Source: Blastocystis sp. Blastoise
Taxonomy: Eukaryota > Protista > Bigyra: Opalinata
Assembly: GCA_039096225.1 (NCBI GenBank)
Contig: JBBPEB010000006.1
Coordinates: 1-64,000, forward strand
Length of the DNA: 64,000 nucleotides
Direction of reading: 5' to 3'
Numbering within the stretch: position 1 is the stretch's first letter; the number at the start of each line of letters is the position of its first letter. Under the pieces are notes generated by a model, which worked only from the letters and a program-made list of their open reading frames with translations, had not been told where the DNA came from and ran no database searches. Below, piece after piece: positions 9,115-45,300 of the stretch. The position numbers and the translations under genes are program-made.

Positions 9115-10583
9115 ATGAAAAGAATTGTATGATATAATATACATAATACATGATAAATAAATTATTTATATTTATATAGCAAAACCAAATAAGTATTAAT
9201 CAATTTGATTGTATCTAATATCAAAATATTTTATATATTATTATTAATAAATCTATATATCAATTATTAAAATTATAGCGAATACTAAAAATAATAAAAT
9301 CAAAAAAAATAGCAATCGTTTTAAAAATGATATACTAGAAACTCAACAATTATCTATTGATTCTACTTATGAAAAAACTCGTCAATCAAGTACACCTAAA
9401 AAAAGTATATATATACTATAATAATATTATAATAAATAGAAATCTCATCTTCAAATAACAATAAATTTCAAAAACAAAATAAAAAAATATTAAATAATAA
9501 TTGTAATATATATATATATATACATTAATAATAATATAATTTTCATTTCATAAATAATATATATAGTTAATACAATTTTGATCGATGATTCTTCTTCTTG
9601 TTCTTCTTTTCCTCCTAGTCCTTTATCTAAAGACCCTAATCCATTATATATGAATAGTGATCTATATTACTCACCTTCTATATCATCTCCTTCTATTCAT
9701 TCTATTCAATTTAATTTATCTTCACCTTCTATATCATCTCCTTCTCCACATATATCAATTTTTAATAATAATCATAATAATAATAATTCATCTATCAATA
9801 AATTTAATTCATCTTCATCTTCTATATCATCTCCTTCTCCACCTATATCAATTTTTAATAATAATCATAATAATAATAATTCATCTATTAATCAATTTCA
9901 TACATCTCCTTCTCCACCTATATCAATTTTTAATAATAATCATAATAATAATTCATCTATCAATAATTTTCATTCATCTCCTTCTCCACCTATATCAATT
10001 TTTAATAATAATCATAATAATAATTCATGTATCAATAAATTTAATTCATCTCCATCTTCTATATCATCTCTTTCTCCACCTATATCAATTTTTAATAATA
10101 ATCATAATAATAATAATTCATCTATTAATCAATTTCATACATCTCCTTCTCCACCTATATCAATTTTTAATAATAATCATAATCATAATTCATCTATCAA
10201 TAAATCTCATTCATTTCCTTCTCCACCTATATCAACTTTTAATAATAATCATAATAATAATTCATCTATCAATAATTTTCATTCATCTCCTTCTCCACCT
10301 ATATCAATTTCTAATAATTCTATTAAATCTACTATATCTAATAATAATTTAAATAATCAATGTAATCCCAATTCTATAAATAAACAATTACCTGCTTGTC
10401 ATGAATTTCCTATTGAAGCATCATTTCTTTCACCGATTCTACATAAAAATATAATAATAAAAAAGAAATCTATAGATAATAAAGAATATGATTCTATTAA
10501 GATAAATAATAATCAAACTTATAAATTCAATTCTAACAAGAATAATGACGAAATTCAAGATAATGTAATTGATATAGACTCAC

Positions 10584-10637
<54 letters not shown>

Positions 10638-11004
10638 ATAATGGGAAAATTATATCAAATAAGAATAAAATAGACTATATACCACTAGCAATTAAAAATA
10701 ATGAAGAAGAAGATGATGAAGAAATTCTAATAAGTTCAGAAGAACTCAAAACATTTCTATATACATTATCAAGTAATAATTGTTTATATATTAAATGCAT
10801 TATTATTATTATAATTCATACGATATATAGATATTCAAAATATAATTAAGAATAATAATGAAATAGATGAAGAAGTATAAATATATTTTAAAATAATATT
10901 TTTTGATTTATATATATATATACTCAATAGATAAGATCAGAAATATATAATTTTTTGAAGCAATACAAAATAAATCTTGATGATAATGAAGTATATTTAA
11001 AATC

Positions 11005-11055
<51 letters not shown>

Positions 11056-11357
11056 TAATATATATATACAGGATTTTATGAATAATTTGTGTAATTTAAT
11101 TTTGAACTCGGATACAAACTATACTAAACATGTATATATTTAAATAATAATCATATTTATTTTAATTTTAATTTATAGATTATTACTAACCCACTACTTG
11201 TAAAAGATTTGGATCTTCAAACCTATATATATCTGCAATTAGGATATGTATCTATATATATATTATATGTATATACATTTAAAAATATAATAATTCTAGA
11301 TACTTAAGAAAAATAACAATAATGAAGAATCATTAAATACAATTCAAGAATTAAGAA

Positions 11358-11392
<35 letters not shown>

Positions 11393-11715
11393 GTTACCTG
11401 TAAAATTAAATGAAAGAATAAATCTTGGTGAGAAATCATTAGAAATAAATAAAAATCTTCTTGGTTGCTTTTTACCAGAACGATTAAGTGATGATGATAT
11501 TAGTCGCCTATATAATATAATAAAATATTGGAAATATCAAAGAAAGTGTAGTAGAAAAAGAATTCTACTAATGGATACAAATACAAAAATATTTATAAAA
11601 TATGCTTTACCTTTAATTAAATCTGTGATTACTGGAGACTTCTATGAAAACGGGGTTGAGGATAAAATACCGGATATATCTATATATTCTCTATCTGAGA
11701 AACAAATTTTGTATC

Positions 11716-13083: not shown

Positions 13084-13129
<46 letters not shown>

Positions 13130-15588
13130 TTGCTCATATGAATTACTGGTTAGAAAGTGTACATTCAATTATGATATAAATCGTTATATTGAATCAAAAG
13201 AAGATATATCATCTAAAGTATTCATATTATCAATATTATCCATATTATTTTTATTATCGATATTATTTATATTATTCATGTATATTCATTTTATCCATAT
13301 ATATTCATATTCATATATATTCATATTCATATTCATATTCATATTATCCATATATATTCATATTCATATTATTCATGTATATTCATATTATCCATATGTA
13401 TTCATATTCATATTCATATTCATATTCATATTCATATTATCCATATATATTCATATTCATATTATTCATGTATATTCATATTATCATATATATCCCATAG
13501 ATGGAATCAAAAGATAGTGCTAAAATAAATAATTGTAACAATGAAAATAAATATATTAAATTATCAGATCAACAAATATCTCCTATAATTATTTCCCCAA
13601 TTATAAAGTTCAATAGTATAAATAATAATGAAGATAAAAATAGTATAGAACTTATTTCTCCTCTTCTTCTGCCTTCATTAAATTCAAATAACAATAATAA
13701 TAATTATAATCTAAATGATAATAATATATCAAATTATTGCTATTCTCCAATTCCAAGTATTCATAATTCTGTTGAAGATTTCGATCGTTTTAATATTTCT
13801 ATAATTTCTGATAGTGATAATTCTATCAATAATAATTCTTCTAATTCAATAATAAATAATATATTTAACCCATTAATCAATAATAATAATTCTTCTAGCC
13901 AATTTATCAATCATAATAGTTCTTCTAATTCATTAATCAATAATAATAATTCTTCTAATCCATCAATCAATAATAATAATTCTTCTAATCTATTAATCAA
14001 TAATAATAATCAAAATAACAATAATTCTTCTAATCTATTAATCAATCATAATAATTTATCTAATTCATTAATCAATAATAATAATCAAAATAACAATAAT
14101 TCTTCTAATCTATTAATCAATCATAATAATTTATCTAATTCATTAATCAATAATAATAATCAAAATAATAATAATTCTTCTAATCTATTAATCAATAATA
14201 ATAATCAAAATAACAATAATTCTTCTAATCTATTAATCAATCATAATAATTTATCTAATTCATTAATCAATAATAATAATCAAAATAATAATAATTCTTC
14301 TAGTCAATTTATCAATCATAATAGTTCTTCTAATTCATTAATCAATAATAATAATTCTTCTAATCCATCAATCAATCATAATAATTTATCTAATCTATTA
14401 ATCAATAATAATAGTTCTTCTAATTCATTAGTCAATAATAATAATTCTTCTAATTCATTAATCAATAATAATAATCAAAAAAATAATAATTTTTCTAATC
14501 CATTAATCAATAATAATAATTCTTCTAATCAATTAATCAATCATAAAAAATCTTTTAATTCAATCAATAATAGTAATTCTTCTAATTCAATCAATAATAA
14601 TAATCCTTCTAACCAATACATCGATAATAATAGTTTTTCTAGTTCAATAGTAAATAATAGTTCTTATAATCCATCAATCAATAATAATAATTTATTAAAT
14701 CCATTAACAAATAATAATAATTCTTCATCTCCTAATATTTTTCTAAATAATATCAATAGTAATTTGATTAATCCAATAATTAGTAATAATAATGATATTT
14801 CTTTTCAAAAAAAACAAAATATAAATAATTCTTCATTCAGACCATATAATGTAATTGATAATAATTCCAAAGTATTGAATATTAATAATGATTCATATAA
14901 AGTAACTCAGTATAATAACCAATCTTCTTCTAATCTAATTTCGACTAATAATTCTAATAAACAACCATCTATACAATATAATATTGATCTTATTAATGCT
15001 GATAATATAATACCTAATGATTTCAATAATTATAGTTCATTATCTAAAAATAATGATATAAGTTACGAAATTAATAATCAATCATCTAGTCTATCTATAT
15101 TAAATTATTCAAATGATAATTATAATCTTTGTATCTATATAATATAATATAATATAATATAATATAATATATATATATAATGTATATAATATAATAAAAT
15201 ATTTATATATATATATATATACAGCTAGTTGTTATAATAATAGTCAAAATAGTCAATATGAAAATGATCCTATACAAATAAATAATAAACAAACATATAA
15301 TCTAATTAGTATTATATATATTTATATATATTATATATATTATATATATATATATATATAGATAATGAGATAATAGTTAATGAAAAACAATATGTATATA
15401 ATATAATATAATATAATATAATATAATATATATAGTATACATTCTTACATGAAGGATCTTTTCCAAGTGAATTATTTGATTTATATTTATATTTAAATGT
15501 TTATAACCAAATTGTAACAGCCAATAATATAAATTTATTCATTCATAATTACTATAATTATAATGATTTTATTAATGATTCTTATGTA

Positions 15589-15635
<47 letters not shown>

Positions 15636-15961
15636 ATTATTATTCATATATATATAGTTATATAATATATCTTATGAAATTCAATTTCATTTTAATTCCA
15701 ATTCACCAATATTTTTTATATTTACAATCTATTTAAAGTATTAATCTATATATATATATTAATATTATTATTATTATTATAGAAATAAAGATAGATATTA
15801 TTTAATAATCAATAAACTGACAAATGGTGATAAAAAGAAAACACTTACAATTAATATATACAATTTCTTTGATATTGAAGATGGAAATGATAAATATCTC
15901 AATCAAATAATTAATCAAATCAAAAAGTATATTTAATTATTTTAATAGAATTATCTATCTA

Positions 15962-15997
<36 letters not shown>

Positions 15998-16345
15998 TTA
16001 TTTAAAACTAATACATCAAAAATTATTGTTCAATATAAAAAAGTATATATATATATATACTTATATATATATATATAATAAAAAAATATTATATATAAAG
16101 TGTGATAAATCTTATGATAATAACAATGCAATTCTTATATTTGGAATGATTAAACAATTTATCAAAGAATATAATATGTTTCAAAAAAATATAAAACATA
16201 TTAGAAACTTGTATATATATATATATATATACAATAATAACTTTTATATATATATAGAAATTTTGATTATGATAATATAGATTTAGATTCTGAACAATTA
16301 AACGTTAATAAATTCTTCTTATATCACCTAAATAAAGAAAAATAA
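9115..16345 (+). CDS. Multi-exon tyrosine recombinase (Crypton-like) with Ser/Pro/Asn and Asn-rich low-complexity arms and a degenerate C-terminal Ulp1-like region, ~1,890 aa
   Basis: About 24 exons join in frame by GT-AG introns, linking ORFs 9578, 10955, 11571, 11771, 13501 and 16026 plus an exon at 12714-13077 that is missing from the ORF track. Motifs: TGCPLRNNDI (R 12305), HTGSKN (K 12407), GYSYRHCFATW (R 12778), CHHTNDVHDKYY (H 12859, Y 12886). The tiny 5' exons and the start codon are less certain. Confidence 0.82.
9700..10320 (+). repeat. Coding tandem repeat (SPSPPISIFNNNHNNNSSINxFH) in the recombinase gene
   Basis: About 8-9 copies of a ~66-90-bp unit in ORF 9578-10633. Confidence 0.9.
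13218..13500 (+). repeat. 283-nt intron largely made of (TATTCA)n repeats
   Basis: GTATTC...CCCATAG boundaries keep phase 0 between ...EDISSK and MESKDS...; the interior is a TATTCA/TATCCA array. Confidence 0.75.
13870..14730 (+). repeat. Coding Asn/Ser tandem repeat (~30-bp unit, SSNxLINNNN)
   Basis: Repeated TTCTTCTAATxxATTAATCAATAATAATAAT units in ORF 13501-15147. Confidence 0.9.
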
Positions 16346-16479
16346 ATTATTTTATGTATATATGATATTTTTAATAAATATATTTATAATTACTATTTCT
16401 TATGTATTCTTTTTTGTTGACTTTAAATAAATATACATATATACAATATAATTATAAAATAATTTACAAGAAATATAAA

Positions 16480-18020
16480 TGAAAATTATATATACATATC
16501 AAAAAGAAAAAATAATAATAATATATACCTTTTATTATCAGTAGTTACTAATTGTACTCCTTTCTCACAAAACTCTCAAATAGCATTACATGATATAGTA
16601 CAAATCACCATATTATCTTTTAGATATCATGAAGTATATGTATATAGAAGATTATATTAAAAGAATGAAATAATCTTCCTATATATATATATATATAACA
16701 TATAAATGAAAACTATATATATACATACTTTTATTATCAGTACGATTATAAACATCCCATATTCGACCAAGAATCCATATCATATATTCTCTTACAATTA
16801 TAACTATTCAATTCAACCACTTTATAATCAATCTATATAATATATAAGAGTATATAATAAAAAAATATTTACTTCTTGATAATAATAAGTTTCTGAGAAT
16901 ATTGCTAATATTTCAATTATTATTATTCTTCCATAAAATTCTACAATTCATTTTTTAGAAAGATATAAATAATAAGCTAATAATAAAATATATATTCTTT
17001 AGCTGAAGATAATTAAAGAATTTAAGAATATATAGTAGTTAAAATGAATTAAATAAATCTTATCTTAATTTACAATTTATTTAATATAATAAAAGTAGAA
17101 GAGTATTTATAAGATTGAAAAAAAGAAATAACAAGAATAAAAAAAAGTTTAGAGATAGTAATAGGAGTAGGAGAACATATAAAATAAATAACTAAATCAG
17201 TTACATGAATTCATAATAATAATAACTCTCTCTATATATAGATGGAATAGTTAGTATAGTTATAATAAATAAAAAAATAAATAGAATATATATATTAATA
17301 TATTATGACTAATCTAAAAATATATATACATAAATTTAAGTCTCTCTGTATATAAAATAGAATAATATCAAGAAGGATTGCAATATAAACTATATCTTTA
17401 CAAGTCAATATAGGATCTACTAACTCTTCTATATATATAATAATGAATAAAAAATAAATATATAATATTATATACCTCTTTGTTAATCATTACATTTTTT
17501 TTTCCTTTAATATTTTCTTTTAGTTTTTCTATTTCATCATTAACATCATTATCAATGTATTTCATTTCTTTTCTCATTTTATTTCAGTTTCTTATTTACT
17601 TTTATTCTTTGTTAATTTCTTAAAATTATATATTTCATCTTCTAATACGTAATAAATTATAAATATAGTAATAATATCATTAGCAATACTTACAGTAATT
17701 ATTTACCAGAATCAATACATAATGATAAATATTCAACTAAAGTAGGTAATAGTAATAGTTAAATATTATATAAATATTATAAAGAAGAAAAAATAATTTT
17801 AATAATAATAGTATTTTCTTTAATCTTAAAAGTAGTATTCAGTAATACTTCATATAAAGGAGTTCATAAATCAAATAATAAAGATTTCCATTTATTTTTA
17901 TTATTATTATAATCACCAATACATTCAACTATTTTCTTTATACATCAACCATAAATACAATCTTGACTAAATTTTGTTTTAATTCGATTTGAATCTACTT
18001 TAGAAGTAATAGTAGTCATG
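16480..18020 (-). pseudogene. Degraded multi-exon gene remnants, product unknown
   Basis: Minus-strand ATG near 18019 (MTTITSKVDSNRIKTKFSQD...) followed by in-frame TGA/TAA codons; CTATAT...TAC intron signatures downstream. Confidence 0.45.
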
Positions 18021-18801
18021 TTTATAGATTATTCAATTTCAATTTTTATATTTATTTTATTATATTTTTATTTTTATTTTTATTTTCAATATTCTCATCA
18101 TTTTCATTTATATATATTTTTCTTCTTTTAATAATTTTATAATTTTTATTATTATTATAATTATTTCATATATTCATTCAATAACACCTAATATATAAAG
18201 AATAAATAAACTACTAAGATCTCTCCTATATCCAATAACTCATAATAACTTTTTAAATATGTTAAATTACGAGTATCTAAACCTTTCTTACAAATACATG
18301 AGTTAATAATATAGTTATATCTTCTTCTGATTGAATAGGAGGTATACATAAATCTTTTATAAATAAACATAATAATATCTTAAATAATAATTATTTTAAT
18401 TCTTCATAATCTAATAAAGATAATAATTTAAAATAGAATGACAATTTATATTATAAATTGTTTTTGAATTTAGCTTCTTATTGAATAATCTACATAATAA
18501 AATACATTCTATAATAGGTATAATAAGATTTCCATATTCCACTTTTATAACTCCTTGATCTTTCTCTATATATAATCATAATACAGTATCACAATAATTC
18601 AATTCATCACATAATCCTAATAAACTTTCTTTATATAGAACAATAACTAAATTATTATAATAACATAACAATTCACGACATATATTCTTCAAAGAATCAT
18701 CTAAAAAAATACTTTAAATATCAAGCCAATTACTGAAATTTTTAAGAAGAATTTCAGATATGTATCTGTTTCATGTAGACGTAGTGCATAGGTATATAGT
18801 T

Positions 18802-18996
<195 letters not shown>

Positions 18997-19029
18997 TGTT
19001 CCTTTTTTAAATAAAAATAATAGTAATAT

Positions 19030-19703
19030 TCATTTTTTAAGATTTTCTTCGAATTCAGTATGAATTGGTTTCATCACCTTATATTCTTCAATATCATAAA
19101 CTATTTTATAACCATAAGATTTCTTATTTAGGAAATCAATAAAAATAATCTCATATATTATTTATTAAATAGAAGAATATAAGTAACTACATTAATAGGA
19201 GAATAGAATAATAATATTCAAGATGTATTAATTTTTTTATGACTATATAAAATATATAAAAATAACATAAAACTATAATAAGAATAAATATATTAATTAT
19301 AACTATAATAAGTATATATATATACCTATAGAATAGTTCTTCCTTCATTTATAATCGATATTTCAATATATATATAAGTTTAAAATATTTAATAATAAAT
19401 TTATAGCTATCTTATATTTTTTTAAACTATATATAATATCCTATTTCTTTTCTTTTTAGATAATATAATATATTGTATATAAATCGATATATTTACATCT
19501 ATATATTAATTAATAAGATATCTTTTAACACAAAAATAATTCCAATATTATTTATTTTCAAAACTAGCAATTCAAATGTAATATTCAATTTATTTATTCC
19601 TAAAAATAATTCCATTTTAAATAATAAAGACCAAATATAGGATATATAAATATAAATAAGGATAACATTCAAATAACTATCTAGTTAATAACATCTCAAT
19701 TGT

Positions 19704-19734
<31 letters not shown>

Positions 19735-19754
19735 TATTTCTTATCAGTTCTTTT

Positions 19755-19808
<54 letters not shown>

Positions 19809-20407: not shown

Positions 20408-21699
20408 ATTATTATAAAATATAAAAAGAATAATAATTAAATAACTCTAATATAAATGAATTAATTTAAATAATAATTTTAATTAAAAATTAAAATAAAT
20501 AAGAAATTAAAAAAATATATATATATATATTACAATTAATTCATCAAAATACAATACGGAATTCAATTAATAATCACGATAACTACGTGATATACTCTCT
20601 AATCATTTTAATACTATAAAATATATGTATATAAAATAAATAAAACTAATTCAAAATAGAAATACATACTAAAAGTATTTCTTTAATCCAATATGTTATT
20701 TGAAACATTATATTGACCTATTCTATAACACAATAACAGACCAAATCTTAAATAATCATGCAACCTAAACAAAGAATGCAATTAACTAAAATAATATATA
20801 AAATATATACTAAATATTGAAGCGGAACATTGTTTATTTATTGAATTTAATATATTCAATCTGAATAAAGCATCACAGCAACACATAACTTAAAAAAAAA
20901 ATAAATCAAAGACCAAGTGTCAATTTTTTCTATATTTCAAGAATTAAAATAAAATTATACGGATTCATTTAACTTTTACCGTAAACGAATAAAACAACGA
21001 TCTGTGTTTTACATTTTTAATATTCTTTTATAAATATCATTATAATATAAATTATTTTTTTATTTTTTTATCTCTATATACTATTTTAAACACAATTTAT
21101 AATCATTTAATCAATAAAAAGTTAACATTGTCAATCCATTCACTGTATAAAAATAAATAAATCAAAATCAACTCTATTCTATCAAGTATAAGCTCTATCA
21201 ACTCAATATCAACTCTATTAACTCATATGAAATACAATTATAAACATCACCTTTTTATCTCTTCATAACTATAATAAAACTTTATTTGAACTCATTTTCA
21301 TCTAGAATTGCTTTGTAAGTTCATAATCCATGATAAATACACTTTATTAAAGCTTTTTGTCACGGATCACTATTTTTTAGCTATAAAATAATTAATTAAA
21401 ATAAATTTACTAATAATGTTTACATCTTGAGTTATTATAAACATTCAAAAACACATACATACTTTTAAAAACACATTATCTAAAGAAAAACTATTTTTAA
21501 AAAACAAGTTTTAAAAAAAACATAAAATTTATTCAAATTATAACGAGATCCATTCAAAAAATCGTGATTCTCGTTTATTTACCTTATTCTTGTGTCTTCA
21601 CTAAAAACAATTTCAAATTTCATTATTTATCTATCTTATATATTTATCAAAACTCTATCTTTTTAATTAATTATGTATGTTATCTATTTATTATCTCTA

Positions 21700-22600
21700 T
21701 ATCTCCTAGGTGTCTCATTCTTAGGTCTTGTAGTCTCTCCATTCTTCAAAATCTCCATTCCTTTTGCTGTTCTTCAAAAAGTGCTTAAAATGGTATATAT
21801 TCTATATTATTTATCTATTTAATATTATATATTTATTTAGGAAGTCTTGGTGTTACCTGATTGGTGATCTCTGTGTTGGTTTCCTTTCTTGTTGGTTTTA
21901 ATGTGTTCAAACAATCTACAAGGTATTTATATATTCATTCTATTCATTTTATTATTTTTTATATAGTCTAAAGGGTTAATTCACCTATCATGGGTTGTGT
22001 TTTTTCGTTTTTTTTTATATTGCTGGTCTCCAAACATGTATGGTGTTCTTTTGTGGCTTTCTGTGTCATCTCAATGATCTCTTCTTTATCAAAAATATCC
22101 TTTTTCCTGTATATTTTTATTTATTTATTTTTTCTTTTTTTTTATTATTTTTTATTCTTTATTTACTTTTATATTATTATAAATATATTTATTATCATCT
22201 TATTTATTTATATACAGTATTTATATATAGTTTTTGTTATCAAAGAGATGATCATCGTCTCCATTGTGCTTGATATTTTTCTTCTTTTGCTTCTATTTGG
22301 ATTCTTTGTCTTGTTTATGGTCTTGTAATGCTATTTGAGATGAATTGGGTTACAATTTTAGGTATCTTATGTAAATATATATATTATATTTTTATTTTTT
22401 TTTTATTATATTTGTCTTTATCTATTATATATATCTTATTATAGCTCTATTATATATTTATTTTTTATATTTACATATTTATGTGGTTTATTATACTATT
22501 TTATATTATTTTTATTAACTATTTTATATAATATATATTTTATTTATTATGTATTTTGTTCTCTTGGTGTATTAATAGCTTTGTTGCTTTCGTATATATA
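21700..22600 (+). pseudogene. Remnant of a multi-exon hydrophobic (membrane) protein gene
   Basis: AG/GT-bounded exon-like blocks at ~21710-21792, 21841-21922 and 21967-22108 encode hydrophobic text with a stop and a frameshift. Confidence 0.45.
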
Positions 22601-24995: not shown

Positions 24996-25127
24996 TATAA
25001 TTTAAAAAATAAACAAAAAAAATAAAGCAAAATAAAAAAGCCTCTCAAAAAGGTCAACCACTTTTTTACCCTAATAACATTTTGGTTGACTTTTTTATTT
25101 TAATTCATTCTATTGGCTTATTTCATC

Positions 25128-25623
25128 CTACAATCGTAGAATCGTAGACTCTACGATTCTACGATTGTAGACAGCCAATCAAATTCATTTTCCTACAATC
25201 CTACAATCGTAGAATCGTAGACTCTACGATTGTAGACTACCAATCAAATTCATTATCTTATATTCTACAATCGTAGAATCGTAGAGTCTACGATTCTATG
25301 ATTGTAGAAATGAAAAACTCTATTTTTATTGGATAAATCTTTTTTTATCCAATTATTTTCTTCTTTTTTCAATTCTACAATACCCAATTATTTTATTTTA
25401 TTTTTTTAACCAATTAAATTAATTATTTTCACCCTAATAAAATTTTGAGAACCCTTCTTTTAAAACATTACCACTTTATTCTATCATTTTTTTACCCTAA
25501 TACTATTTTGGTTCACTTTTTTACCCTAATACTATTTTGGTTGATTTTTTTTTAAACTTATTCTATTGGTTTATTTAATCCTACAATCATACAATCGTAG
25601 ACTCTACGATTCTACGATTCTAG
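25128..25623. repeat. Cluster of four related palindromes (CTACAATCGTAGAATCGTAGA-C-TCTACGATTCTACGATTGTAG)
   Basis: Copy 1 (25128-25170) has perfect 21-bp arms and a 1-nt centre; variants at 25201-25235, 25265-25307 (centre G, opposite orientation) and 25581-25623; nearby ATTGG/CCAAT motifs. Confidence 0.95.
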
Positions 25624-25726
25624 ACTACCAATTAAATCAATAATATCTTTTTTTATCCAATTATATTTATAATATTAAAAAATATTATAACATTTTATAA
25701 CATACTCTCAGTATATATTTTTTTTT

Positions 25727-25876
25727 CCCTAACCCTAACCCTAACCCTAACCCTAACCCTAACCCTAACCCTAACCCTAAACCCTACCCTAACCCTAACC
25801 CTAACCCTAACCCTAACCCTAACCCTAACCCTACCCTAACCCTAACCCTAACCCTAACCCTAACCCTAACCTAACC

Positions 25877-25917
<41 letters not shown>

Positions 25918-26285
25918 CCCTAACCCTAACCCTAACCCTAACCCTAACCCTAACCCTAACCTAACCCTAACCCTAACCCTAACCCTAACCCTAACCCTAA
26001 AACCCTAACCCTAACCCTAACCCTAACCCTAACCCTAACCCTACCCTAACCCTAACCCTAACCCTAACCCTAACCCTAACCCTAACCCTAACCCTAACCC
26101 TAACCCTAACCCTAACCCTAACCCTAACCCTAACCCTAACCCTAACCCTAACCCTAACCCTAACCCTAAACCTAACCCTACCCTAACCCTAACCCTAACC
26201 CTAACCCTAACCCTAACCCTAACCCTAACCCTCTAACCCTAACCCTAACCCTAACCCTAACCCTACCCTAACCCTAACCCTAACC

Positions 26286-26326
<41 letters not shown>

Positions 26327-26690
26327 CCCTAACCCTAACCCTAACCCTAACCCTAACCCTAACCCTAACCCTAACCCTAACCCTAACCCTAACCCTAACC
26401 TAACCCTAACCCTAACCCTACCCTAACCCTAACCCTAACCCTAACCCTAACCCTAACCCTAACCCTAACCCTAACCCTAACCCTAACCCTAACCCTAACC
26501 CTAACCCTAACCCTAACCCTAACCCTAACCCTAACCCTAACCCTAACCCTAACCCTAACCCTAACCCTAACCTAACCCTAACCCTAACCCTAACCCTAAC
26601 CCTAACCCTAACCCTAACCCTAACCCTAACCCTAACCCTAACCCTAACCCTAACCTAACCCTAACCCTAACCCTAACCCTAACCCTAACC

Positions 26691-26731
<41 letters not shown>

Positions 26732-26798
26732 CCCTAACCCTAACCCTAACCCTAACCCCTAACCCTAACCCTAACCCCTAACCCTAACCCAAACCCAA

Positions 26799-26831
<33 letters not shown>

Positions 26832-26832
26832 C
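25727..26832. repeat. Internal telomere tract (CCCTAA)n, same orientation as the terminal one
   Basis: About 1.1 kb of CCCTAA with many 1-nt indel variants; preceded by T9 (25718-25726). Confidence 0.98.
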
Positions 26833-27700
26833 TCTATAAGTCATAAATAATCATAAATGTGTCATTGTATATAAAATACTCAACTTTCATGAACAGTCAC
26901 ATGAATATGTCAGAAAACACCTATAAGTCATATATACACATAACCCTTACTCTTAGACTAAAGTATATCTTAATTTTTAAAAGAGACACTAACGTATATT
27001 ACATAGCACTCTATACCTCCTATATATGCATAAGTATTTTGTTATCTATGAAAATATCTTACTTTCAAAAATAATCACGGGAATATATTAAATAATACTC
27101 TAGAAGTCATAAATAACCATCAATATTTCATTATATGTAAAAATAATCAATTTTCAAAAATAATCATGAAAATTTATCAAATAAGACTCTATAAGTCATA
27201 AATAATCATAATATTATCATGATCCATAAAATACTCGACTCTCATAAAATACCACCTAAATATGTTATAGAAAACCTATAAGACTTATAATATACATAAG
27301 TCTATCGTTTTGTATAAAAATATAAAAATTTTCTAAATAATTACTGAAATATCCCATATAACACTCTATATGTCATATATATACATAAGTCTATATTTTT
27401 CTATAAAAATATCTTACTTTCAAAAATAATCACGATTATCTATCAAATTTTACTTTGGATAACATAAATAATCATAAATGTATCATTATATTTAAAATCA
27501 TCAACTTTCAAAAATAATCACGGGAATTTATTTAATTTTACTCTAGAACTCTTCAATAATCATAAAAATATCATTTTATATATATATATAATCAAGTTTA
27601 ACACATAATCACGATTATTCATCAAATTACACTCAAAAAGTCATAAATTTCATAAATACTTCATTATATATAAAATGATTACTTATTAATTTTTTTGTTA
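26831..27700. repeat. Second copy of the ~88-bp telomere-associated satellite
   Basis: ACTCTATAAGTCATAAATAATCATAAAT and AATCACGGGAAT units at about 26831, 27073, 27162, 27428, 27516 and 27607. Confidence 0.9.
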
Positions 27701-30700
27701 TTAATGACTTATCAAGTCTCTTATATACTCCTAGGTACTCATTATTATCTATATGACTTACATACACCTATACTAGAACAAAACATTACACTTATTTGTC
27801 ATATTAGACTCTTAGCTACTATTTATTCTACCTAATTTTGTTTTATATATAAATTAAGCTTCTTTAGTCAATATTCACGATTATTTATAAATATTATATT
27901 AATAAATCGAATTATTCATAAATTCTATATCATTCATTAATTGTCATGTGACTCTATTCTTTCTCATATATAAATACCAAGCATATCAATTCTAAAAAAT
28001 ATAGTGTTTGTTATTAAAAAAATTAATATTTTATAATTATTTGTAATTATATGTATATATATACATATATTCATTATTATTCTATCTTATCAACATTAAT
28101 TAACATAATTCTAATGCATATCATAAATATTCTTAAAGCATTCATTACTAATTGAATTATTCATTATAAATAATATATTTCCATACAATCAAAAATAAAA
28201 CTATAATATATCATTTTAATTTTTTTTTCTAATTTATATATTTATACATTTTAAAAACTAATATAATTTCTTAATATATATTATAAATAATTTTATATAT
28301 ATAACAAACTATAAATTTTAATAATTTCTTTTCTATTATTCAAATAGATATATTTACATATATAATGAATTCATATATATATATGATTATCTTCATTCAT
28401 TTTTATATATATGTATAAATAAAAAGTAATATTATTTATAAGAATATTTCTAATACTAAACAATTTCAATGCAATTTTATTTCATCAATTGATTAATTCA
28501 TATAAAATATAACGTTAATTTATTATTATTCAATTATTTAAATAGAATTTTATATTAATATATAATGAAAATTATATTTTTAAATCATCTTCATTATTTT
28601 AATTTTTTAATTTAAATATCAATCAAAAATCAATAGTTATTTTCATTTAAAAATTACATATATATTTATTAATTAAAAATTTTTTTATTAATTAATAAAT
28701 ATATTTGTTTGTAATATTTTCTATATTAATTTAATAGTATTATTCATTATATTATTTATTATAAAACAATAATTATTATTAAATACAATTCATTATGTTA
28801 AATGTAAAATAACTTTATACTATAAAATATTATCATAAATTAATTTGGAAATAATCATTTTTTAATAAATATATATATATAATATACATTCAAAAAACTA
28901 TTTCATTTATATTTTATTAATATATTTATTCAATATATATATATAAATGTAATTTATATTTAAAAAATATTTCTATTATCACATTTAAATGAATTCTTTT
29001 ATATTAATATAACCTATTCATAATTCAATTCATTTTTATAAATAAAATAAATAATTAAATAATTAAACTACATAAAAATAATAAAAAATTCATTTAATCT
29101 TAATAAAAATCAAATATCTTATTCAAAGAATAATTTATTAACAAATATATTTTGAATTCCATATTATTAATAGAATATCGAATGAATAAATAAAATATAA
29201 AAATAAATTATAAATAAATGAATGTAAATAGTATTTTAAAAATATTTAATTCATTATTTAGATAAATAGTTTAGTACATAATTCTTATCTTTTATTTATT
29301 AATGCTTCAATATCATTAAAATCATTAACATTATAATAAATATTATATTAATTAAATAATTATATTTATAAATATAAATATAAATTCATTTAATAAAAAT
29401 AAATCATTGACATTAAAATATATAAAAAATATTTTATAAAACAATTTATATATATTTTATAATAATAAAATAAATTAAAATATAATATTTGAATCTATTA
29501 TAATTCTATATCAACACATATGCATTTTCTACGTATTATCATTTAATATTAATATTTATTTAAAGATATAACACTACAATGTTTTATATATTTCAATAAT
29601 TAGTTAAAATATTTTATTAATAAAAAAACATTTATCACTTTAAGAATAATTTCTTTTAATATTATATATATATTTCTAATTAAAAATAATCTGTTTTCAA
29701 ATTGTATATATTAATAAAATTAATAATATATATCTATAAAAATAAATATTATATTTTTTATTAATGTTTATTTATATAATAAAAATTTTAAAAGAATGGT
29801 TTTGATTATCTATATATGATAAATAATTCTTTAATATTACTAATTTTGGATTATCATTAATAATATATATAAAACTTATATATATATATATAATATATAA
29901 TTGAAAATCAATTTATGACACTAAAATCCACTCCAAAACAAGAATTAAAAATTATTTTCTTTTAAAAATTTTATTTTTTTTCATATATTAATTTTATTTA
30001 TATCTAAAAAATAGCAAATTAAAATTTTTAAATTATTTTTATTTAACTTTTTATATAATTCGAAATATTTCATAGAATTATTTATTTACTATTCATAATT
30101 TAAAAGAAAAATTAGTTTTTTTTTATTTCCTTATAAGTGATCACTATACAACATTAATATTATTTTTTAATTATTTTACTTTATATAGATTCTTTGACAT
30201 ATAGACCATTTTCACTAATAGATATTTTTTTGTTTTCTTTTTTTTAAATAACCCTTAGCCTGATTACTATCATCCTCTAGAAAAGCACAAATAGAAATAA
30301 AAAATCACATTGTGACTCTAAAGTCAACACCAAATAACGTATATGACACCACTATCAGACCCAATATTTTTTTAAGAAACAATTTCAGAAATTTATTTGG
30401 TTCTAACCCTAAGCAAATAAAAATACACGAGAAATAAAGCATATATATTATTTAATTAACATAATATGGGTATTAATGATATATAAAAGGGTTTAATAAG
30501 TCATTTCATATTTAATTGATATCCTTTTTAATCCCAAAGAAACTCATTTTCATTTAATAATATTATAAACAGAAAAATAATAAACTAAAAAAAAAGAATA
30601 CATAAATAATTAATAAACTAACATAGATTTTTTTATATGTTTAGTATTCATGGAGAGTGTCGTTTTTTGACCATTTTTAAAGACTATAGAAATGTAATTA

Positions 30701-35800: not shown

Positions 35801-38711
35801 ATAAATAATAATAATTATCAACATTTACAATACTTTTTCGAACATATTTCTTCCTGTTTCATCACAACTAGATCATAGTCTAATAACGTCAGGTATTGCC
35901 AATAAACTATAAATATAAATAAATAAAAATATAATTATAACTAAGTCTTTGAGTATCAAATAAAAATACATTATTACAACTATACAGGTGGCAAACACTT
36001 TCTTTAATAATTAGTAAAAAAATTAAATAATAATAGTAATTATTCATTCAGAATATATATTATAAAAAGTAATCTTTATTTCAAAAGAAAAATAATAGAA
36101 AAATTTCACTTATTTTTTATATTTTTTTTCTTTTTAGAAAAACAAAATATATTTTTGGATCTAGTTGAATTACATACCCATTTTGGGAATATATTAGATC
36201 GATTTTATTTTGTTTCTGTTATTTTGGTACCCAAAACTGGATCTAATAAAAATAAATTTGAATGAAATTTTATTATATACATATTATAACAGTTTACAAT
36301 CCACTTCTGTTTCATATATCATCATATGTTTATCATCAATTTTATCTATCTAATATATTAGTATTATAGAAATTTACATTATTTAATATTATTCAATAAC
36401 TATATTTGATAATTATACTATTGAAATATTATCATCAATTAATTTAAATATATATTTTTATTTTATTATATAACTAAATATCATATTAATCAAATAAGAA
36501 TGATTCTATTTGTATAATAATATCATTAATATTATTTTTTATAAAATTCAATATAGTATGAATAATAAATCTTAATCATTTTCATCATTCTTTATATTTC
36601 TATTATTATTATTATTTGAATTATTATTATTATTATTATTAGCAGTAGTATTAACATCAATAATATCATTAATATACTAATGTCTTTATGAATATCTATT
36701 TAAATATTATTATTATTATGATTATAATATTGATTCCCTATTTCTGAATGAAACATAATATAATAGGATAATGAAGAATATTTAGTAGCTCTTCAACAAA
36801 TAAAAAAGCCTGTAGAAGAGAGAAATGAAGGAGAAATATAATAAGTAACACCCTCATTATTATTTATATTCATATTATTATTATTATAAAAATTAGTTTT
36901 GATTGTTAGCCTTGAATTCAAAAATATAGTAATAATAGTAGTAGTAACTAATAATGGTGATAAAGAACTCGCTAATGATTGAATTGGAGATAAACATATA
37001 GTATGGCTTTGTTTAGTCTTATAATAAGAATATATAGTAGAAGAAGTAGTAATAATAGTAGTTGCTGTTGTAATAGCAGTAATAGGATTATCAGTCGTTG
37101 TACTAGTAATAATTGATTTAGATGAGAATGTAGGAACAGCCATACTATTAGTTAGTTAAATGATTCATATCAGAACTATTATTATGATAACAAGAAAGAG
37201 ATTCTGAAGTCATAGAGAAAGAGTATATTTGGAGATTAGATAAAGAATGGATAGTATATGATGTAGGAGGAAGACTATTACTAACAGTAGTATGTATAGG
37301 ATTAAGAAGAGTTGAAATAGTAATAGTAGTAGCATTAGGAATATAAATATTATTATTAGTAGCAATCATAGAATTATTATTTATATTGTTATTAGTAGTA
37401 GTAATAACATTATTATTTGTAGAAGACATATTATTAATAGTAGAAATAAATACCATATTATTATTGTATGCGATATTATTTTCATTAGTATTATTATTAT
37501 TCATAATACTATTAGTATTATAAATCATATTATTAGTTTCAGTTTTCATAATCTTATGTTCTTCTTTTATGTGAATTAAGGATTGATTCTTCTCATTATA
37601 TGAGATAGTATTATCATTCTTTGTAGAATTATTAATAGTATAATTCTGATCTTCTGTTGATATAGATAATGGTATATATATATTAAAAGAATATTCTGTC
37701 GAATCTAATATATCATTTGATTGAATATTAGTATTATTATCTTCATTATTATTATTATTTGAATAATGTATATCTATAGAAGGAGTAGATGAATATAAAT
37801 ATATATTATATAAAATATATTTAGAAGAAGGAAGAAGAGTAATAGGAGTATTATAATGAGTAGTTTCAGACTGATTATGTATATATATGTAGATAGGCTA
37901 TCTTATATAGTAGAAGGTAAATTATGAATACAAGAAGAAGAAGAAAGAATGAATAAGAAGACGTAATGATGAATGTTTTGTTTTAGAAGATTCTGTTGTT
38001 TCTGTGAATGGTATATTATTATTATATACTGTAGATATACTATTTGAATGAAATCGATTTTTTGAGGTATTCTATTTATACTATTCTCTTTTTAAATAAT
38101 TCTTTATCTTTAAGAATTATAGGACTTAATGTATTCTTATTTATATATTCATTTTATGAATCATTATAATAGTTTATAGCTATTTTATTAGTTAATATAA
38201 AGTTATTTGAATTATTATATATTGAATTATTATTAGTATTCACAAAAATATTACTACTTATGAAACTTGAGTATCTTCTTCATTTGTTGTAGTTAAATAT
38301 ATTAGAAGAGGAAAACATGTCTTTTGAGATATAGATACATATATCAGAATATATATTATTTTCTTGAATAGAAGAATATGATTGAGTATAATCATTTGAT
38401 ATAGGTATAGTTGAAGATGATAAAGGTTGTGTTGAATAATTAGAAGAATCTGTAAATGACTGAGATGAAGAAGAAGGAATAGTAGATGAAGATCTATGTG
38501 TAGTTGTAATAGGAGAAATATTTGTATTATTAATAGAAGGAAAATGAGATATAGAAGGAGACATTGAACGAAGTGGAATAGGTGAATGAAATTTCGGAGT
38601 TGAAAGCACAGAAAGACTTTTTCGATTCATACATAATCGCCTAAATAATGTGTTATTCCAATGTGAAATAGAAGCTCGATTTAGTTTATTTTTTTATTGT
38701 GAGGATCGCAT
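32200..38711 (-). pseudogene. Long degraded intron-rich gene(s) including a Ser/Thr/Asn-rich exon broken into ORFs 38280, 37148 and 36793
   Basis: Adjacent same-strand low-complexity ORFs separated by stops and frameshifts; repeated CTATATAT...ATAC minus-strand intron signatures down to ~32300. Number of original genes unknown. Confidence 0.55.
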
Positions 38712-38769
38712 AGAAGAAAGAGATACAATAGTATTATTATTATTATATATAACAATAATAGTAATATTT

Positions 38770-39459
38770 ATTTTTTAAGAATTTCTTCAAATTCAGTATG
38801 AATCTGTTTCATCACATTATATACTTTAATGTCATAGACTATTCTATAATCATAATATTATTCTTTTAAAAAGAATTTCATAAATTATTTTTAAAAGAAG
38901 AATATAAGTAACTACATTAATAGGAGAATAAAATAATAATATTCAAGATGCATTAATATTTTTATGACTATATAAAATATATATAAATAATATATAACTA
39001 TAATAAGAATAAATATATTAATTATAACCATATAAGAATATATATATACCTATAGAATAGTTCTTCTTCCATTTATAATCGATATTTCAATATATATATA
39101 AGTTTAGTATATTTAATAATGTTTATATCTTTCTTTTAACACTTCTAAACCATATACAACAATTTATTTCTTTTATTCTTAGATAATAATATATTTTATA
39201 TAAAACAATATATTTATATATTCATTAATAAGACATTTTTTAACGTAAAATAATTCAAATATAAGCTATTTTCAAAGCTAAAAATTTAAATATAATATTC
39301 AATTAATTTATTCCAAAAAATAATTCCATTTTAAATAATAAAGACCAAATATAGGATATATAAATATATATAGGATAACATTCAAATAGCTATTTAATGA
39401 TTAATATTTAAATTGTTGTCTCTCTCTATATATATATTTCTTATCAGTTCTTCTTTAAG

Positions 39460-39493
<34 letters not shown>

Positions 39494-39495: not shown

Positions 39496-42316
39496 TCAAG
39501 GTAGTAAATATATTAAATAGATCAAATGGATCTACAAATGAATAAGATTAATCATCCTCTATATAATATTATGTATTATATATATATATATATATTATTA
39601 TTATTATATATAATAGATACATATTATACAAACAAAATATATATATATATATATATATTATACAATATATTTATATACATCAAGTTATTTGAAACCCTTA
39701 AGAATATAATCCTTCTGTAAATGGAAGATATGAATTGTTGTAAGGGTAAGAATAATGATTTAAAGGCAAGAAGATGAAAAGGAGGGACTTTTAGAAGATA
39801 ATAATTATATAAATCTATATAGATATATAATATTTGTTGTTTTATAGCTTTTATAAAAGCATTTAATTTAAAAGTTTAGAGTTAAAGATATAGATTCAAA
39901 ATAGTAGTTGAAAAACTATATATATATACTTGATAAAAATAGAATAATAAACATAGAGATAAAAAAGAGATTATTAAATGTCATGAATATCTATATAACA
40001 AATAAAATAGATATAAAATACTTTACACTATTATATATAATACATATATACAAAACTATCATCTTTAAAAAAGATTAAATTAATCAGAATATCATATAAT
40101 TCTCTTTATTTAATTTAATAGTATAAACATATCCATAATGTAAAATATATTCACCAACTTTTCTCTATTATAATAATAATAATTTCTCTCTTCCCTAAAC
40201 ACTTTTTTTTACAACAATTGCCATAAAACAAATGACACTTTTAATAGTTTTTAACAATGTAAAATAATTTTTTATTCACTGTATTAAGCCTGATTTAAAT
40301 GTCTTTCTGTGATAGTCATAACAAGTACCACAAAATATTGGCAACACACCTATATTATTTTTATATATTTCATCAAATTTATCTTTTTTATTATTTATTC
40401 AAATTTTCTATATTATTCTATTATTCATCTATATTTATACTCTTCATCATAATAAAACTATTTTTATAATCATTCTTATTTTATAATAGTTATAAATACT
40501 ATTAAAACGTTCATTTGGCTATTTTTGTAAATTGTATACTATTCATAAATTCTATACTATTCTCAACTTATTCTTGTTTATAAACTATTTTTTTATTATA
40601 TTTAAAAACTTTATTTAATTTTATTATTAATATTTTATTACATTTGTTCATTTCTTTTAAATAATATTCATTCTATACATTTATTTTACTCATTTTTATC
40701 TTTATTTTTTTACAATTCAATGATATAATTATATATATATTATATAAATATATATTCATATATATAATATTCCTATTATTATAGTTTATAAAAAATATTA
40801 AATTGTTAATAAATTAAAGAATAGAAACATCTTTCATATTTTATTATAGATAACTATTTACTGTTTGGAACTTTCTACAAGAATGTTTTTTAATGATTTT
40901 AATAAATAATAATGTATTGATGTTTATTATTATCATATAATTCCTATCCTTCATATATTTTATTGATTTTATTCTTATAATTTATATATTATTCTTTAAT
41001 ATATACCTATAAAATAAATAGATGTATAAAAAAAATTTTATTAAAAAGCTATTTATTTATTCTTGAGATTATTGTATAAAAATTAATATTAATAAACTTA
41101 TAATAATATAATGGTTAGAAAACAATTAACAAAACTATTTTTTATAATTTATTAATAAAAAAAATAATATTAATATATTGAAAAAACTTTTCTCAATAAA
41201 GAAAAGAAAAATATATATATAAAAATAGAAATCATAATTTATTATCCTATTTTATGCTCTTCCCCAGACTTCATAATCTTCTACTTTATAATTATTTTGA
41301 GAATTAGCATCATTAGTATTTACAAATAAAGATGATTTTTGAGGAGTATTCACTTCAGAATAAGAAGATGCTTTACAATAAGAATTAGTATTACTATGAC
41401 ATTGATCAGATATATAGATATCAAAACCACTTCCAAATGTTGGACCATAAGAAGAACCGCAAATAATACCATAACTACTATAAGTATTATCATATTTAGT
41501 AGGAGGAATACCATGTTCATTACTTAAAGTAAATAGAAATTCATTAGAATAAGATTTATTACCTATATAAATTATATCAATAAATCATGTAAAATAAATA
41601 AACATACTATATGAACCAGATTCCCAATCTTGATCTGTATATCCTCCAAATATATTCATATGATTATTATGACCTATATGTTTGATTATAGTTACTGTTT
41701 CTCCTTTATGATCACAATATTTATGAAATTCACTTAGAGAATAATAATGTTCACTTGCTCTATATATAATGATATAATATAATAAATTAATAAATACCTA
41801 AATAGTAATTTCCATTTCTTTTCCTTACCTAACCAATTCACTAAAGGACTCTCCAATGATTTATTTAAAATAATACTACTTCCTTTAAACCATGCTTGCT
41901 TCATTCCATCATTGACAATTTGTATTCCTTTATCACCAAAAATAAGGCACATTTCATTCTCCAAATTAATTCTACTAATATTTAGTATATCATCTTCTGT
42001 AGCAAAAAAAATATTATATTGAATATATTCATTGATATAATTAATATATTCAAAATTTATATTCATATACATTTCATTATTCTTCTTATCATAATCTACA
42101 TATCCATATCCATATTCATTAACAATCTTATTCCATAATCCATTAGTCTTTAAGTACTGTTTTAATCTGTCATCTTTCTTATCATTTATATAAAGAATAA
42201 CATCATCACCTTCTTTACATTCTTTGATATTACGATCTCTTCTATAGCGACTCTTAACAAATTCTTCAGGAATAGGTAAATTACAATATTCAAACATTCT
42301 TAATAAATCAATTTGA

Positions 42317-45300
42317 TAGAGACTTGCAAAAAAATTCCCGTAAATATTTCGCAAATTGCACTTCTCTAATTGCACTTTTTTTTTGACAGATTTTTAAAAT
42401 TTTCTTTTGCTACATAAAGCCCTGGTCTGTGATCAAATAATATTAAGGACCATTTATATCATCATGAAATCAGTTAAAGCATCTATATGTGAAGAAGCCA
42501 TGTCTTTAGCTGACAAATATAGTTTATCAATTTGTGACATTATTGATATTTTAAATGAATCACAAAACAATAATGTATATATATTCATTCTTACTTTGTT
42601 CTTATTATATATCTATTATTATATTGATGTATAGACAGAAGCTAATGACTCATTTCCAAAAAATATTAATTATGCTTCATATTTAAATAGAACAAACCAT
42701 TTAGGAAGTATAACGAATCTTGCATATTTATATGTCATACCAAATAGTATTGAAATATGGGAAAAAAAAAACATGTAATGCAATGGGAACTTGTTTACTT
42801 TGTGGAAAGGAGATTAAGTGCAATAATAATGGTTCTCTTCAATCATCATCAATAGAAAATCATTTAATGTTCTTACACAACATGGAAAAAGGTATATTTC
42901 GAAAGTATGGAACGATTAATAACTTCTTTAATGGTTTTCAAGCAGAATCGTTATTAAACAAACATAAAGAAAGCATTTTAATGTACTGTAAGAAGCTAAA
43001 TTCAGATATTGAAAGTACTGATGAAGAAATTGTCTATTTAGGTTGTGAGAGAAGTCCAAAAAGACGTCAGATTGAAACGTTATCTACTCCTATATGTTCT
43101 GATAATAACACCGAATTACGATCTCTTGATGATTCTACTCAATCTCTTTATTCTTCTAATCTATCTATATCACGTTCATCATCTTCATATACAAAGGCTG
43201 AAGCACTACGTTTATTATTTATGTGTCAAAACAGATTATCTTTTCAAATTATGGAAAAACCAAATGCATCAGACTATTTAGATTTATTATCATATAGACG
43301 TGCTACAAAAATACTATCTTCAGTATCATGTGATTTATTTAAGCTATTTCAATCTAAACTGGAGTCTGCATTACACTATTGTTTATCTTCTGATATATGG
43401 TCGAGACATAATAGAAAGATAATTTCTTGGAATTACTATTATTATGATATTAGTGGATATCACAGTGGATTATATGCATTACTTCCTATTGATGCTTCTG
43501 ATTCTGAAAGTATACTTAAATCATTGAAATCTATTATTTCTCATCACAGTCCTATTGCAGTAACTACTGATAGAGGTACAGGATATACATCAGCATTATC
43601 TGGATCTAATTCGAGTATTCTCAAAATAGATTGCTTTTCTCACTTCCTTAATACTTTATATACTCATGGTATATCCAAAAAAAGTACTAAATCATTATTT
43701 GAATGTATTAGATCATTAATACGAGAAATTAGGAAGAAGTCTAATTTTGAATGTTTCAGTAATTGTATTGAGTCAATTACTGGTTCGAAGCCAATAAAGC
43801 CAACATTAGATTGCCCTACTCGATTCTATAGCATTCTTCAACCACTTGAATGGATATATAAATATGGTACATATGCAGTGTTATTCCTTAATCATTTGAA
43901 AAAGAAGAAAGCTTATGATATATCTATAATAACTGAGTTTGTTGCATTTATTCCATATATGTTTGCTCTGAACAAAAGCCATCTTATTCTTAGTTGTTTT
44001 TCATATCCTACTGCTCATTTAGTCTTACCCTTTATATCTTCCCTGAAAAATATTTTTGATCAAAATCCAAGCGATTACTTAGGATATGAAACAAAGCCAT
44101 TAGTTTGCATTAATGAATTTGTAAACAGTATTCGCAACGATTTGAATAAGATTGGAAAACCAAATTTCTATTATAATAAAAAGCAGCTGGATTTTTTGGC
44201 ATGTTCAAGTTCAATGTATATTTATCTAGATAAACTACTGGAATCTAACTGTTATAATGATGTAGATGATAGTTTTTACAATAGAGATATAAAAGAATGG
44301 AAATCTATATTTATTACATATCTATCAAAAGAGTGTCCAAATGATAAAAAGGAAATTGTTAATATCATTGACTCATTAAGTAATGGATGTAGGGGAATAG
44401 GAACAATCCCATCTATTTCAAAGATATTATCATGTTCAATTGAAAGAAGGGACTCTGAATATATTGGGTTGATAAAAGAAGCCATTGATTGCTTCTTTAT
44501 GTATGATATAGCAAATCATAAAGATTTTATGATTATGTATAAGAAGTCAACATTATTTAGTATTTCAATAACAAATAATGAGTTAGGTGGTGTTGGTAAT
44601 AAATATTTAAATAAAGCTATAATTGATGGTACTGTTTTAAATGACAGTAATGAAAATAGTTGTAATGAATATTATGAAGAAAGTGATTCAATGTGTGACT
44701 ACTTAAAGTGCTCACTTATATCATCTTCAGAAGAGTCCTGTGATGAATTTGTGAATAATAAATGTAGTTCTACTAATGATAGTTGTTATCTATTTTCTAT
44801 TTCAAAGAATTCCATATTTGAAACAGAAAAAACCTTTAGTGTACATTCTGATTTAATGAATTATTATTCATTTGAACTTTACTTCAATAAGAATTTCTAT
44901 AATAGTAAACTAATATTTTATTTATCAAAGTTTCTATCTCCTTCTGCAACAGAAATAGGAGATGAACGAATTTTTAATTATTGTGGTCTACTAGATAATG
45001 GGAAAAATACAAATATGAAAACAGAGAAGTTTTGCAACATTGTTTATGTTAATAAGAACTTCGAATCAGTTCAGATGTTGACCAAGAATAAAAAGAAATA
45101 GTAAATTCTGTATTTTCTTTTGCTAATATTAATATATGTATGCTTTTTAAATTCTATTATAATAACCATTTTTGTTATTCAATGTTAAAATAATTATAAA
45201 ATATTTTTTTTTATTTAAAAAGACTACATTTGCATGTGTTAATTCATCCAAAAAATGTGTAAGCGTTTCGGTTCTTTCTTTTATAATTCACTAGAAAACA

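Follow-up and report, generated by a model that had tools for sequence, protein, structure and literature searches.

A multi-copy, intron-rich gene for a probable tyrosine recombinase between two telomere tracts of Blastocystis

What would a recombinase gene be doing within a few kilobases of a telomere, and could it be part of an element that moves between chromosome ends? We asked this of the first 64,000 nucleotides of contig JBBPEB010000006.1 of Blastocystis sp. Blastoise (assembly GCA_039096225.1; hereafter the window), an AT-rich eukaryotic chromosome end in which GC content beyond the terminal CCCTAA array is mostly 10–25%. A preliminary description of this DNA had proposed a hidden tyrosine recombinase gene of ∼24 exons and ∼1,890 amino acids, belonging either to a Crypton-like element or to a domesticated recombinase. 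The answer we favor, with a probability of about 0.5, is a recently amplified recombinase DNA element that lacks reverse transcriptase (RT), is of Crypton type in its mode of working and is specialised on chromosome ends. The present analysis adds to that description the copy number of the gene, a second telomere tract, a palindrome block, spliced antisense RNA and the observation that the Tyr-x-x-Arg motif of the protein is the signature of ResT and TelA.

The proposed gene structure held up, as joining 24 exons across 23 GT..AG introns from the ATG at 9115 gives a stop-free frame of 1,892 amino acids that ends with TAA at 16343–16345. GC content is 20% in the exons and 7% in the introns, and the ATG lies 6.9 kb from the terminal array (1–2181), in agreement with the 7 kb given earlier. 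The parts of the gene are:

8836–9020, plus strand: 11-bp tandem array TATACAGTTAA, ∼17 copies, ∼95 bp upstream of the ATG, a putative promoter or binding array
9115–16345, plus strand: 24-exon gene, 1,892 amino acids, with Ser/Pro/Asn repeats, a conserved core of 550 amino acids, an Asn-rich spacer and a conserved C-terminal domain of 240 amino acids
11761–12639, plus strand: exon 13, with a helical region that aligns with the core-binding domain of recombinases, and with R843 (TGCPLRNND) and K877 (GSKN)
12714–13077, plus strand: exon 14, with Y973-x-x-R976 (RHCFAT; XerD RHAFAT), H1002/H1003 and Y1011/Y1012
15362–16345, plus strand: conserved C-terminal domain

In the C-terminal domain a degenerate pattern, picked out by eye, resembles that of Ulp1/C48 peptidases; searches of Pfam and of PDB sequences gave it no support. 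In the first 41 kb we recognised no further intact gene, and none of 82 short frames reached a Pfam cut-off; the preliminary description had likewise built no other there.

Deposited protein P0006 has 15 of the 23 model junctions in common with our model and is otherwise identical to it save near the N-terminus. Since it matches in full across the core (550/550), spacer (545/545) and C-terminal residues (242/242), P0006 is likely the annotation of the gene at 9115–16345. The junction 12639>12714, which brings in exon 14, said earlier to complete the catalytic motif, is present in all five deposited protein clusters, and the genome paper states that the annotation pipeline for this strain gave preference to RNA-supported introns (PMC10690189). 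For RNA evidence we used contigs of run X1 mapped to 3000–12880, which takes in the 5′ part of the gene, and for which 13 joints are listed; the run is taken as RNA because its contigs show splice joints. Runs X2 and X3 placed no contigs in this range, which is no proof of absence. Our model predicts 13 sense junctions in this range; three of them are among the listed joints, and RNA contig joints lead into two (9404>9440 and 10874>10931) of the three 60–63-nt exons of the earlier model that P0006 skips. The junction 12639>12714 is not among the listed joints; joints at repeats were dropped from the listing, and a TA run of 22 nt lies in this intron. Of the 13, three long joints without canonical ends were discarded as artefacts of repeats.

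Is the protein a tyrosine recombinase? Very probably it is, as a distant member judged from its sequence, with support of moderate strength. The catalytic R-K-H-x-x-R-H/W-Y set is found in order and with typical spacing, Y973 replacing the first His, and every residue lies where the preliminary description had put it: R843 at 12305, K877 at 12407, Y973/R976 at 12769/12778, H1002/H1003 at 12856/12859 and Y1011/Y1012 at 12883/12886. Spacings from R843 through K877, Y973, R976 and H1002 to Y1011 are 34/96/3/26/9, compared with 24/72/3/23/9 in XerD and 28/88/3/23/9 in Cre. The 9-residue distance from His to Tyr had also been recognised before, with the minor correction that unguided alignment picks H1002 and Y1011; H1003/Y1012 has the same spacing. 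The top match of the core in the ESM Atlas was a recombinase/integrase cluster, 80% PF00589, with a score of 0.96, which about one shuffled protein in 100 attains. Against a profile of 30 diverse recombinases the core scored 5.7 bits, a score that none of 1000 global shuffles and one of 1000 local shuffles attained, and in hhalign (E 0.007) R, K and the HxxR box of the core aligned collinearly. Unguided MAFFT alignment with 25 recombinases matched R843, R976 and H1002 to invariant columns, Y1011 to that of the nucleophile and Y973 to that of the His; shuffles matched all four catalytic columns (R, R, H, Y) once in 23 local trials and never in 24 global ones. AlphaFold guided by a recombinase alignment gave a predicted local distance difference test (pLDDT) score of 74–82 over core residues 351–430, much of the catalytic domain. 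All 10 PDB matches of this model at E ≤ 0.001 were recombinases (template modelling score 0.19–0.26), and integrases also led the viral library; the model is circular, its input being the recombinase alignment, and it speaks for compatibility only.

Several results weigh against this identification. Searches of Pfam, PHROGs, NCBIfam and PDB sequences found no recombinase match, PF00589 included. A Xer-only profile was not significant (score reached by 38/1000 and 33/1000 shuffles), nor was glocal alignment to it in any of six settings (best 13/150), and the significant diverse-recombinase profile came after several non-significant profile tries. The hhalign probability was 5.5%, the 152 features shared in the Atlas fall under the 170 typical of same-family matches, and single-sequence AlphaFold gave a pLDDT of 34.5 with no fold match. 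The negative curated-profile searches, the non-significant Xer-only tests and the unmatched single-sequence model could mean that the motifs are coincidental and the protein no recombinase, which we regard as extremely unlikely, given that the Atlas, diverse-profile and alignment controls converge on the same residues in order. The earlier assignment has moderate support from these three lines and finds no backing in standard profile searches or unguided structure prediction. As a tyrosine recombinase the core would cleave DNA through a phosphotyrosine, with strand exchange.

A search with exon 14 returned five clusters with 13 sequences, all of them hypothetical proteins of Blastocystis sp. 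Blastoise: a gene family of at least 13 near-identical copies in one strain. The four full-length clusters are identical at 547–550 of 550 core residues (0–3 differences) and the truncated fifth at 454 of 462, and the Asn-rich spacer shows 70–74% identity among the full-length clusters. The 13 near-identical copies disfavor the single domesticated recombinase that had been offered as an alternative. Locus tags of the copies include 006557/006559 and 006854/006855. If tags run along contigs, the first pair would straddle a contig boundary, and the second would lie ∼295 genes further on a 1.32-Mb contig, near its other end at ∼257 genes per Mb; these positions suggest that copies lie at contig ends and in tandem, with the proviso that the tag displayed for the nine-member cluster need not belong to the contig listed for that cluster. 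Outside the strain, word search found no relatives, none occurred in viral contigs or phages, and among 1.84 billion representatives nothing but the protein itself matched at E ≤ 0.001.

The InterPro table of the genome paper lists 36 DNA breaking-rejoining proteins in the Blastoise strain, 6 and 7 in its sister tortoise strains and 2–4 in human strains (PMC10690189 supplement 7). The table does not name proteins, and 10 of the 36 carry a Pfam-level integrase domain, which the 1,892-residue protein lacks. This strain-specific excess of recombinase-fold proteins is compatible with a burst. The same table gives 20 RT-domain proteins for the Blastoise strain versus 0 and 3 for the sister strains (PMC10690189 supplement 7), so the strain may have further active recombinase families, DIRS-like retroelements for example. 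The family is deposited only as hypothetical protein, and we found no description of it in the open literature on Blastocystis tyrosine recombinases or in the text and supplements of the genome paper (PMC10690189), subscription journals being outside this scope.

Why, then, does the gene lie where it does? Its surroundings contain two telomere tracts and a set of repeated blocks:

1–2181, plus strand: terminal telomere tract (CCCTAA)n, ∼362 copies, 99% pure
2179–2862: 88-bp subtelomeric tandem repeat, a family that recurs at 26831–27675
2282–5285: subtelomeric block with 69% identity to 26997–30024 of the inner unit
19005–19796: block with 84% identity to 38743–39493 of the inner unit, in the same direction; decayed gene-like sequence
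25040–25660: palindrome block of CTACGATT/AATCGTAG repeats in both orientations, with three TTTTACCCTAATA telomere-seed motifs and nine CCAAT/ATTGG, a candidate recombinase-binding end
25727–26836, plus strand: internal telomere tract, oriented like the terminal tract, 91% pure, joined to a T9 run

Since the two CCCTAA tracts run in the same direction and each is followed by the 88-bp repeat, the first 41 kb is two nested subtelomeric units. The outer unit of 23.5 kb holds the recombinase-like gene and is bounded by the two tracts, its inner boundary being 25727–26836. The inner unit has flanking blocks in common with the outer one, yet no trace of the gene, and tblastn found no remnant of it elsewhere in the window. 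At the position of the outer unit's recombinase cassette the inner unit has unrelated sequence, with broken Ser/Thr/Asn-rich frames at 36500–38700 (minus strand). All three GC-containing palindromes in the window with arms of ≥11 bp fall in the 620 bp before the inner tract and are made of CTACGATT repeats (z −20 on 20 shuffles). Near-perfect palindromes with 20-bp stems adjoin the inner tract, and the three TTTTACCCTAATA motifs resemble the T9-CCCTAA junction. These palindromes could be recombinase sites, or they could belong to a CCAAT-rich promoter.

The two units can also be read in another way, with the recombinase gene as a passenger or domesticated host gene in a subtelomeric block that host break-induced replication or ectopic recombination copied between ends, the inner tract marking where one end was captured onto another. 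The telomere-adjacent and inner blocks that the two units have in common at 69–84%, outer junctions that look telomerase-healed, and the host-like character of 23 introns and long low-complexity regions all suit this account, and such copying routes are documented at fungal telomeres (PMC7367193). However, the inner unit is without the gene, the strain-specific excess of recombinase-fold proteins fits a burst, and no orthologue was found elsewhere, though sister-strain proteomes may be absent from the databases searched. We consider a passenger or domesticated gene the main rival, though less likely than a mobile element. Some features of the locus count against a mobile element in their own right. 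The outer junctions of both units lie at differing phases of the 88-bp repeat and look like telomerase healing rather than a precise recombinase cut. A join made during the nanopore/Flye assembly could account for the inner tract, whose purity of 91%, versus 99% for the terminal tract, is compatible with either age or assembly error. A distance of 9 kb separates the palindromes from the gene, and their nine CCAAT boxes would also suit a promoter. Finally, no empty site, element end or circle was seen in the window, the other copies being known from their protein sequences.

The Tyr that replaces the first His of HxxR (Y973), already remarked upon in the preliminary description, is found at the same position in ResT and TelA. 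The catalytic residues of TelA are R255, K286, Y363, R366, H394 and Y405, the corresponding Tyr of ResT is Y293, and according to the reports on these enzymes no other resolvase, topoisomerase or recombinase has this Tyr (PMC11317167, PMC3558466). A hairpin telomere resolvase would cut the palindromes beside the inner tract into hairpin ends, which would resolve ends that are fused or duplicated, or free a linear element. With ResT and TelA the protein has in common the order R-K-Y-x-x-R-H-Y, a long R-to-K spacing (34 here, 31 in TelA) and the presence of palindromes nearby, here near-perfect ones with 20-bp stems, and its gene is telomere-adjacent. In contrast, the His-to-Tyr distance is 9 (or 10) versus 11 in ResT and TelA, the context after Arg is the integrase-type RHCFAT where ResT has RAIYCK, and the host has ordinary CCCTAA telomeres. 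Neither ResT, a TelN profile of 64 sequences nor the Pfam resolvase family showed similarity to the protein; PF16684 was absent from 401 sampled genomes and ResT relatives from viral contigs, and no resolvase was among the fold matches listed for the guided model, which is biased toward integrases. A resolvase is for these reasons improbable, and convergence is likelier than kinship as the origin of the Tyr.

The RNA contigs also revealed splicing on the opposite strand:

9636–12575, minus strand: spliced antisense RNA with introns 9636–9674, 10338–10391, 11508–11610, 11959–12037, 12151–12252, 12344–12399 and 12447–12575

These seven of the 13 joints are gaps within coding exons that have intron ends when read on the minus strand, and six of them are exactly GT..AG, which a random gap achieves in 0.6%. 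The seventh, 12151–12252, begins with AT in the window copy; Thr at residue 825 in three other clusters would imply C at 12252, and hence a GT donor for this intron. RNA contig variants at 9312, 10455 and 10517 agree with residues of other copies when compared by eye. Given these variants and the GT donor implied in other copies, at least part of the antisense RNA derives from other copies. Contig depths are 156–771 at antisense joints and 80–94 at sense joints, from which no expression ranking is drawn. A minus-strand protein gene was rejected, the longest frame over 11394–12880 being 69 amino acids. The family is thus transcribed on both strands, and the antisense RNA looks non-coding; we infer that it silences or dampens the family. 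The published InterPro table for the host has no Dicer-labelled row (PMC10690189 supplement 7). A decayed gene-like region on the minus strand at 16400–19000, convergent with the recombinase gene, opens with ATG and ∼63 Asn codons (18807–18994) and is a possible source of the antisense RNA.

How does the locus compare with known recombinase elements? Of the Crypton-like label proposed earlier, the mode of working stood, with a recombinase, introns and no RT or capsid gene found, and sequence kinship did not. Like CryptonS and CryptonF of oomycetes and diatoms, our comparison set, the unit combines a recombinase without RT with a stramenopile host, and the circular intermediate proposed for Cryptons matches what we propose here (PMC3212892). 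Some oomycete members carry a C48/Ulp1 peptidase (PMC3212892), of which any Ulp1-like part here would be a fused and degenerate counterpart. As the preliminary description had held, no RT or capsid gene was found in the gene or its flanking frames; RT and DDE transposase were absent from the gene and all 82 flanking frames, where sensitivity on short exons is limited. No kinship to CryptonF, S, A or I recombinases was found among the 1.84 billion representatives, and Pfam gave neither GCR1_C nor DUF3504. Unlike Cryptons, the protein has 1,892 amino acids from 24 exons and Tyr for His, and it is subtelomeric; Cryptons have 4–6-bp terminal direct repeats at defined ends; CCCTAA brackets this unit, as it would on the passenger reading too.

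Among telomere-associated units, the Y′ elements of yeast are bracketed by telomere repeats and encode a helicase rather than a tyrosine recombinase. TATE of Leishmania bears a recombinase and is telomere-associated, but is DIRS-like with RT (PMC6390901), which was not found in the outer unit; no RT or RNase H linked the locus to DIRS, Ngaro, VIPER or TATE. MoTeR units are likewise bracketed by telomere repeats and their acquisition internalises a telomere tract, but they encode RT and no tyrosine recombinase (PMC7367193). In the Starships of fungi a single recombinase gene heads a large element and other sequence follows it (PMC10104507), but here DUF3435 found no match and the downstream genes look decayed. 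A Polinton-like or other DNA virus, integrated and with its structural genes decayed, might be suspected from the third Atlas match, a Preplasmiviricota cluster (0.96), and from the Adintovirus-like viruses reported in Blastocystis datasets (PMC8502044). We think this most improbable: no capsid, polymerase, packaging ATPase or helicase was found in the window, though short spliced fragments could escape, the 23 introns are host-type, and no relative occurs in viral contigs or phages. Because a defining test failed for each, we do not file the gene as Crypton, TATE, Starship, resolvase or virus.

For the amplified RT-less element that we favor, the following process can be envisaged. The product of the gene is likely an active tyrosine recombinase, and this enzyme likely drives the mobility of the element at chromosome ends. 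The enzyme would bind inverted repeats at the element end, with the palindromes at 25040–25660 as candidates, and cleave through a phosphotyrosine at Y1011 or Y1012. The element would be excised as a circle and rejoined at another subtelomere or within CCCTAA repeats, leaving an internalised telomere tract such as 25727–26836. Host recombination between ends would homogenise the copies further, and the spliced antisense RNA of the family likely dampens the recombinase. A bolder version, which we hold to be rather doubtful, is a DNA-only element whose recombinase, with a resolvase-type active site, targets telomere repeats themselves and extends chromosome ends with whole 23-kb telomere-capped modules, either excising and re-integrating them or resolving the palindromes as hairpins, and is restrained by the antisense RNA.

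The remainder of the window holds other features. At 21690–22360 (plus strand) an exon-intron-like stretch with hydrophobic frames and stops is possibly a membrane-protein pseudogene or a spliced non-coding RNA. A young hAT-like DNA transposon of 3,123 bp at 42317–45439 has terminal inverted repeats TAGAGACTTG, an 8-bp target duplication CAATTTGA and an intact frame of 795 amino acids at 42714–45101, and it interrupts a minus-strand TLDc-like gene (∼41252–46060); both labels were given by eye. A faint Phage_integrase match at 41737–42393 (E 0.24) was rejected, the frame belonging to the TLDc-like gene, of which the TLDc-domain gene at 56479–57525 (minus strand, E 9e-17) is a likely paralogue. 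A 2,108-residue frame at 49560–55886 (plus strand), likely that of a subtelomeric surface protein, combines He_PIG Ig-like repeats (E 8e-35) and F5/8 type C domains, and also has a tandem repeat of 420 bp. Rfam and tRNA scans found nothing.

The telomere-targeted selfish elements in the literature compared here, MoTeR (PMC7367193) and TATE (PMC6390901), are retroelements. If our reading is true, a recombinase-only DNA element would add a new way in which subtelomeres are built. Since the enzyme is without detectable relatives and carries a Tyr reported only in bacterial hairpin-telomere resolvases, it could show directly whether that residue governs the choice between hairpin formation and strand exchange. 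Even on a duller reading, an orphan family of recombinases has recently multiplied in Blastocystis sp. Blastoise and is covered by spliced antisense RNA.

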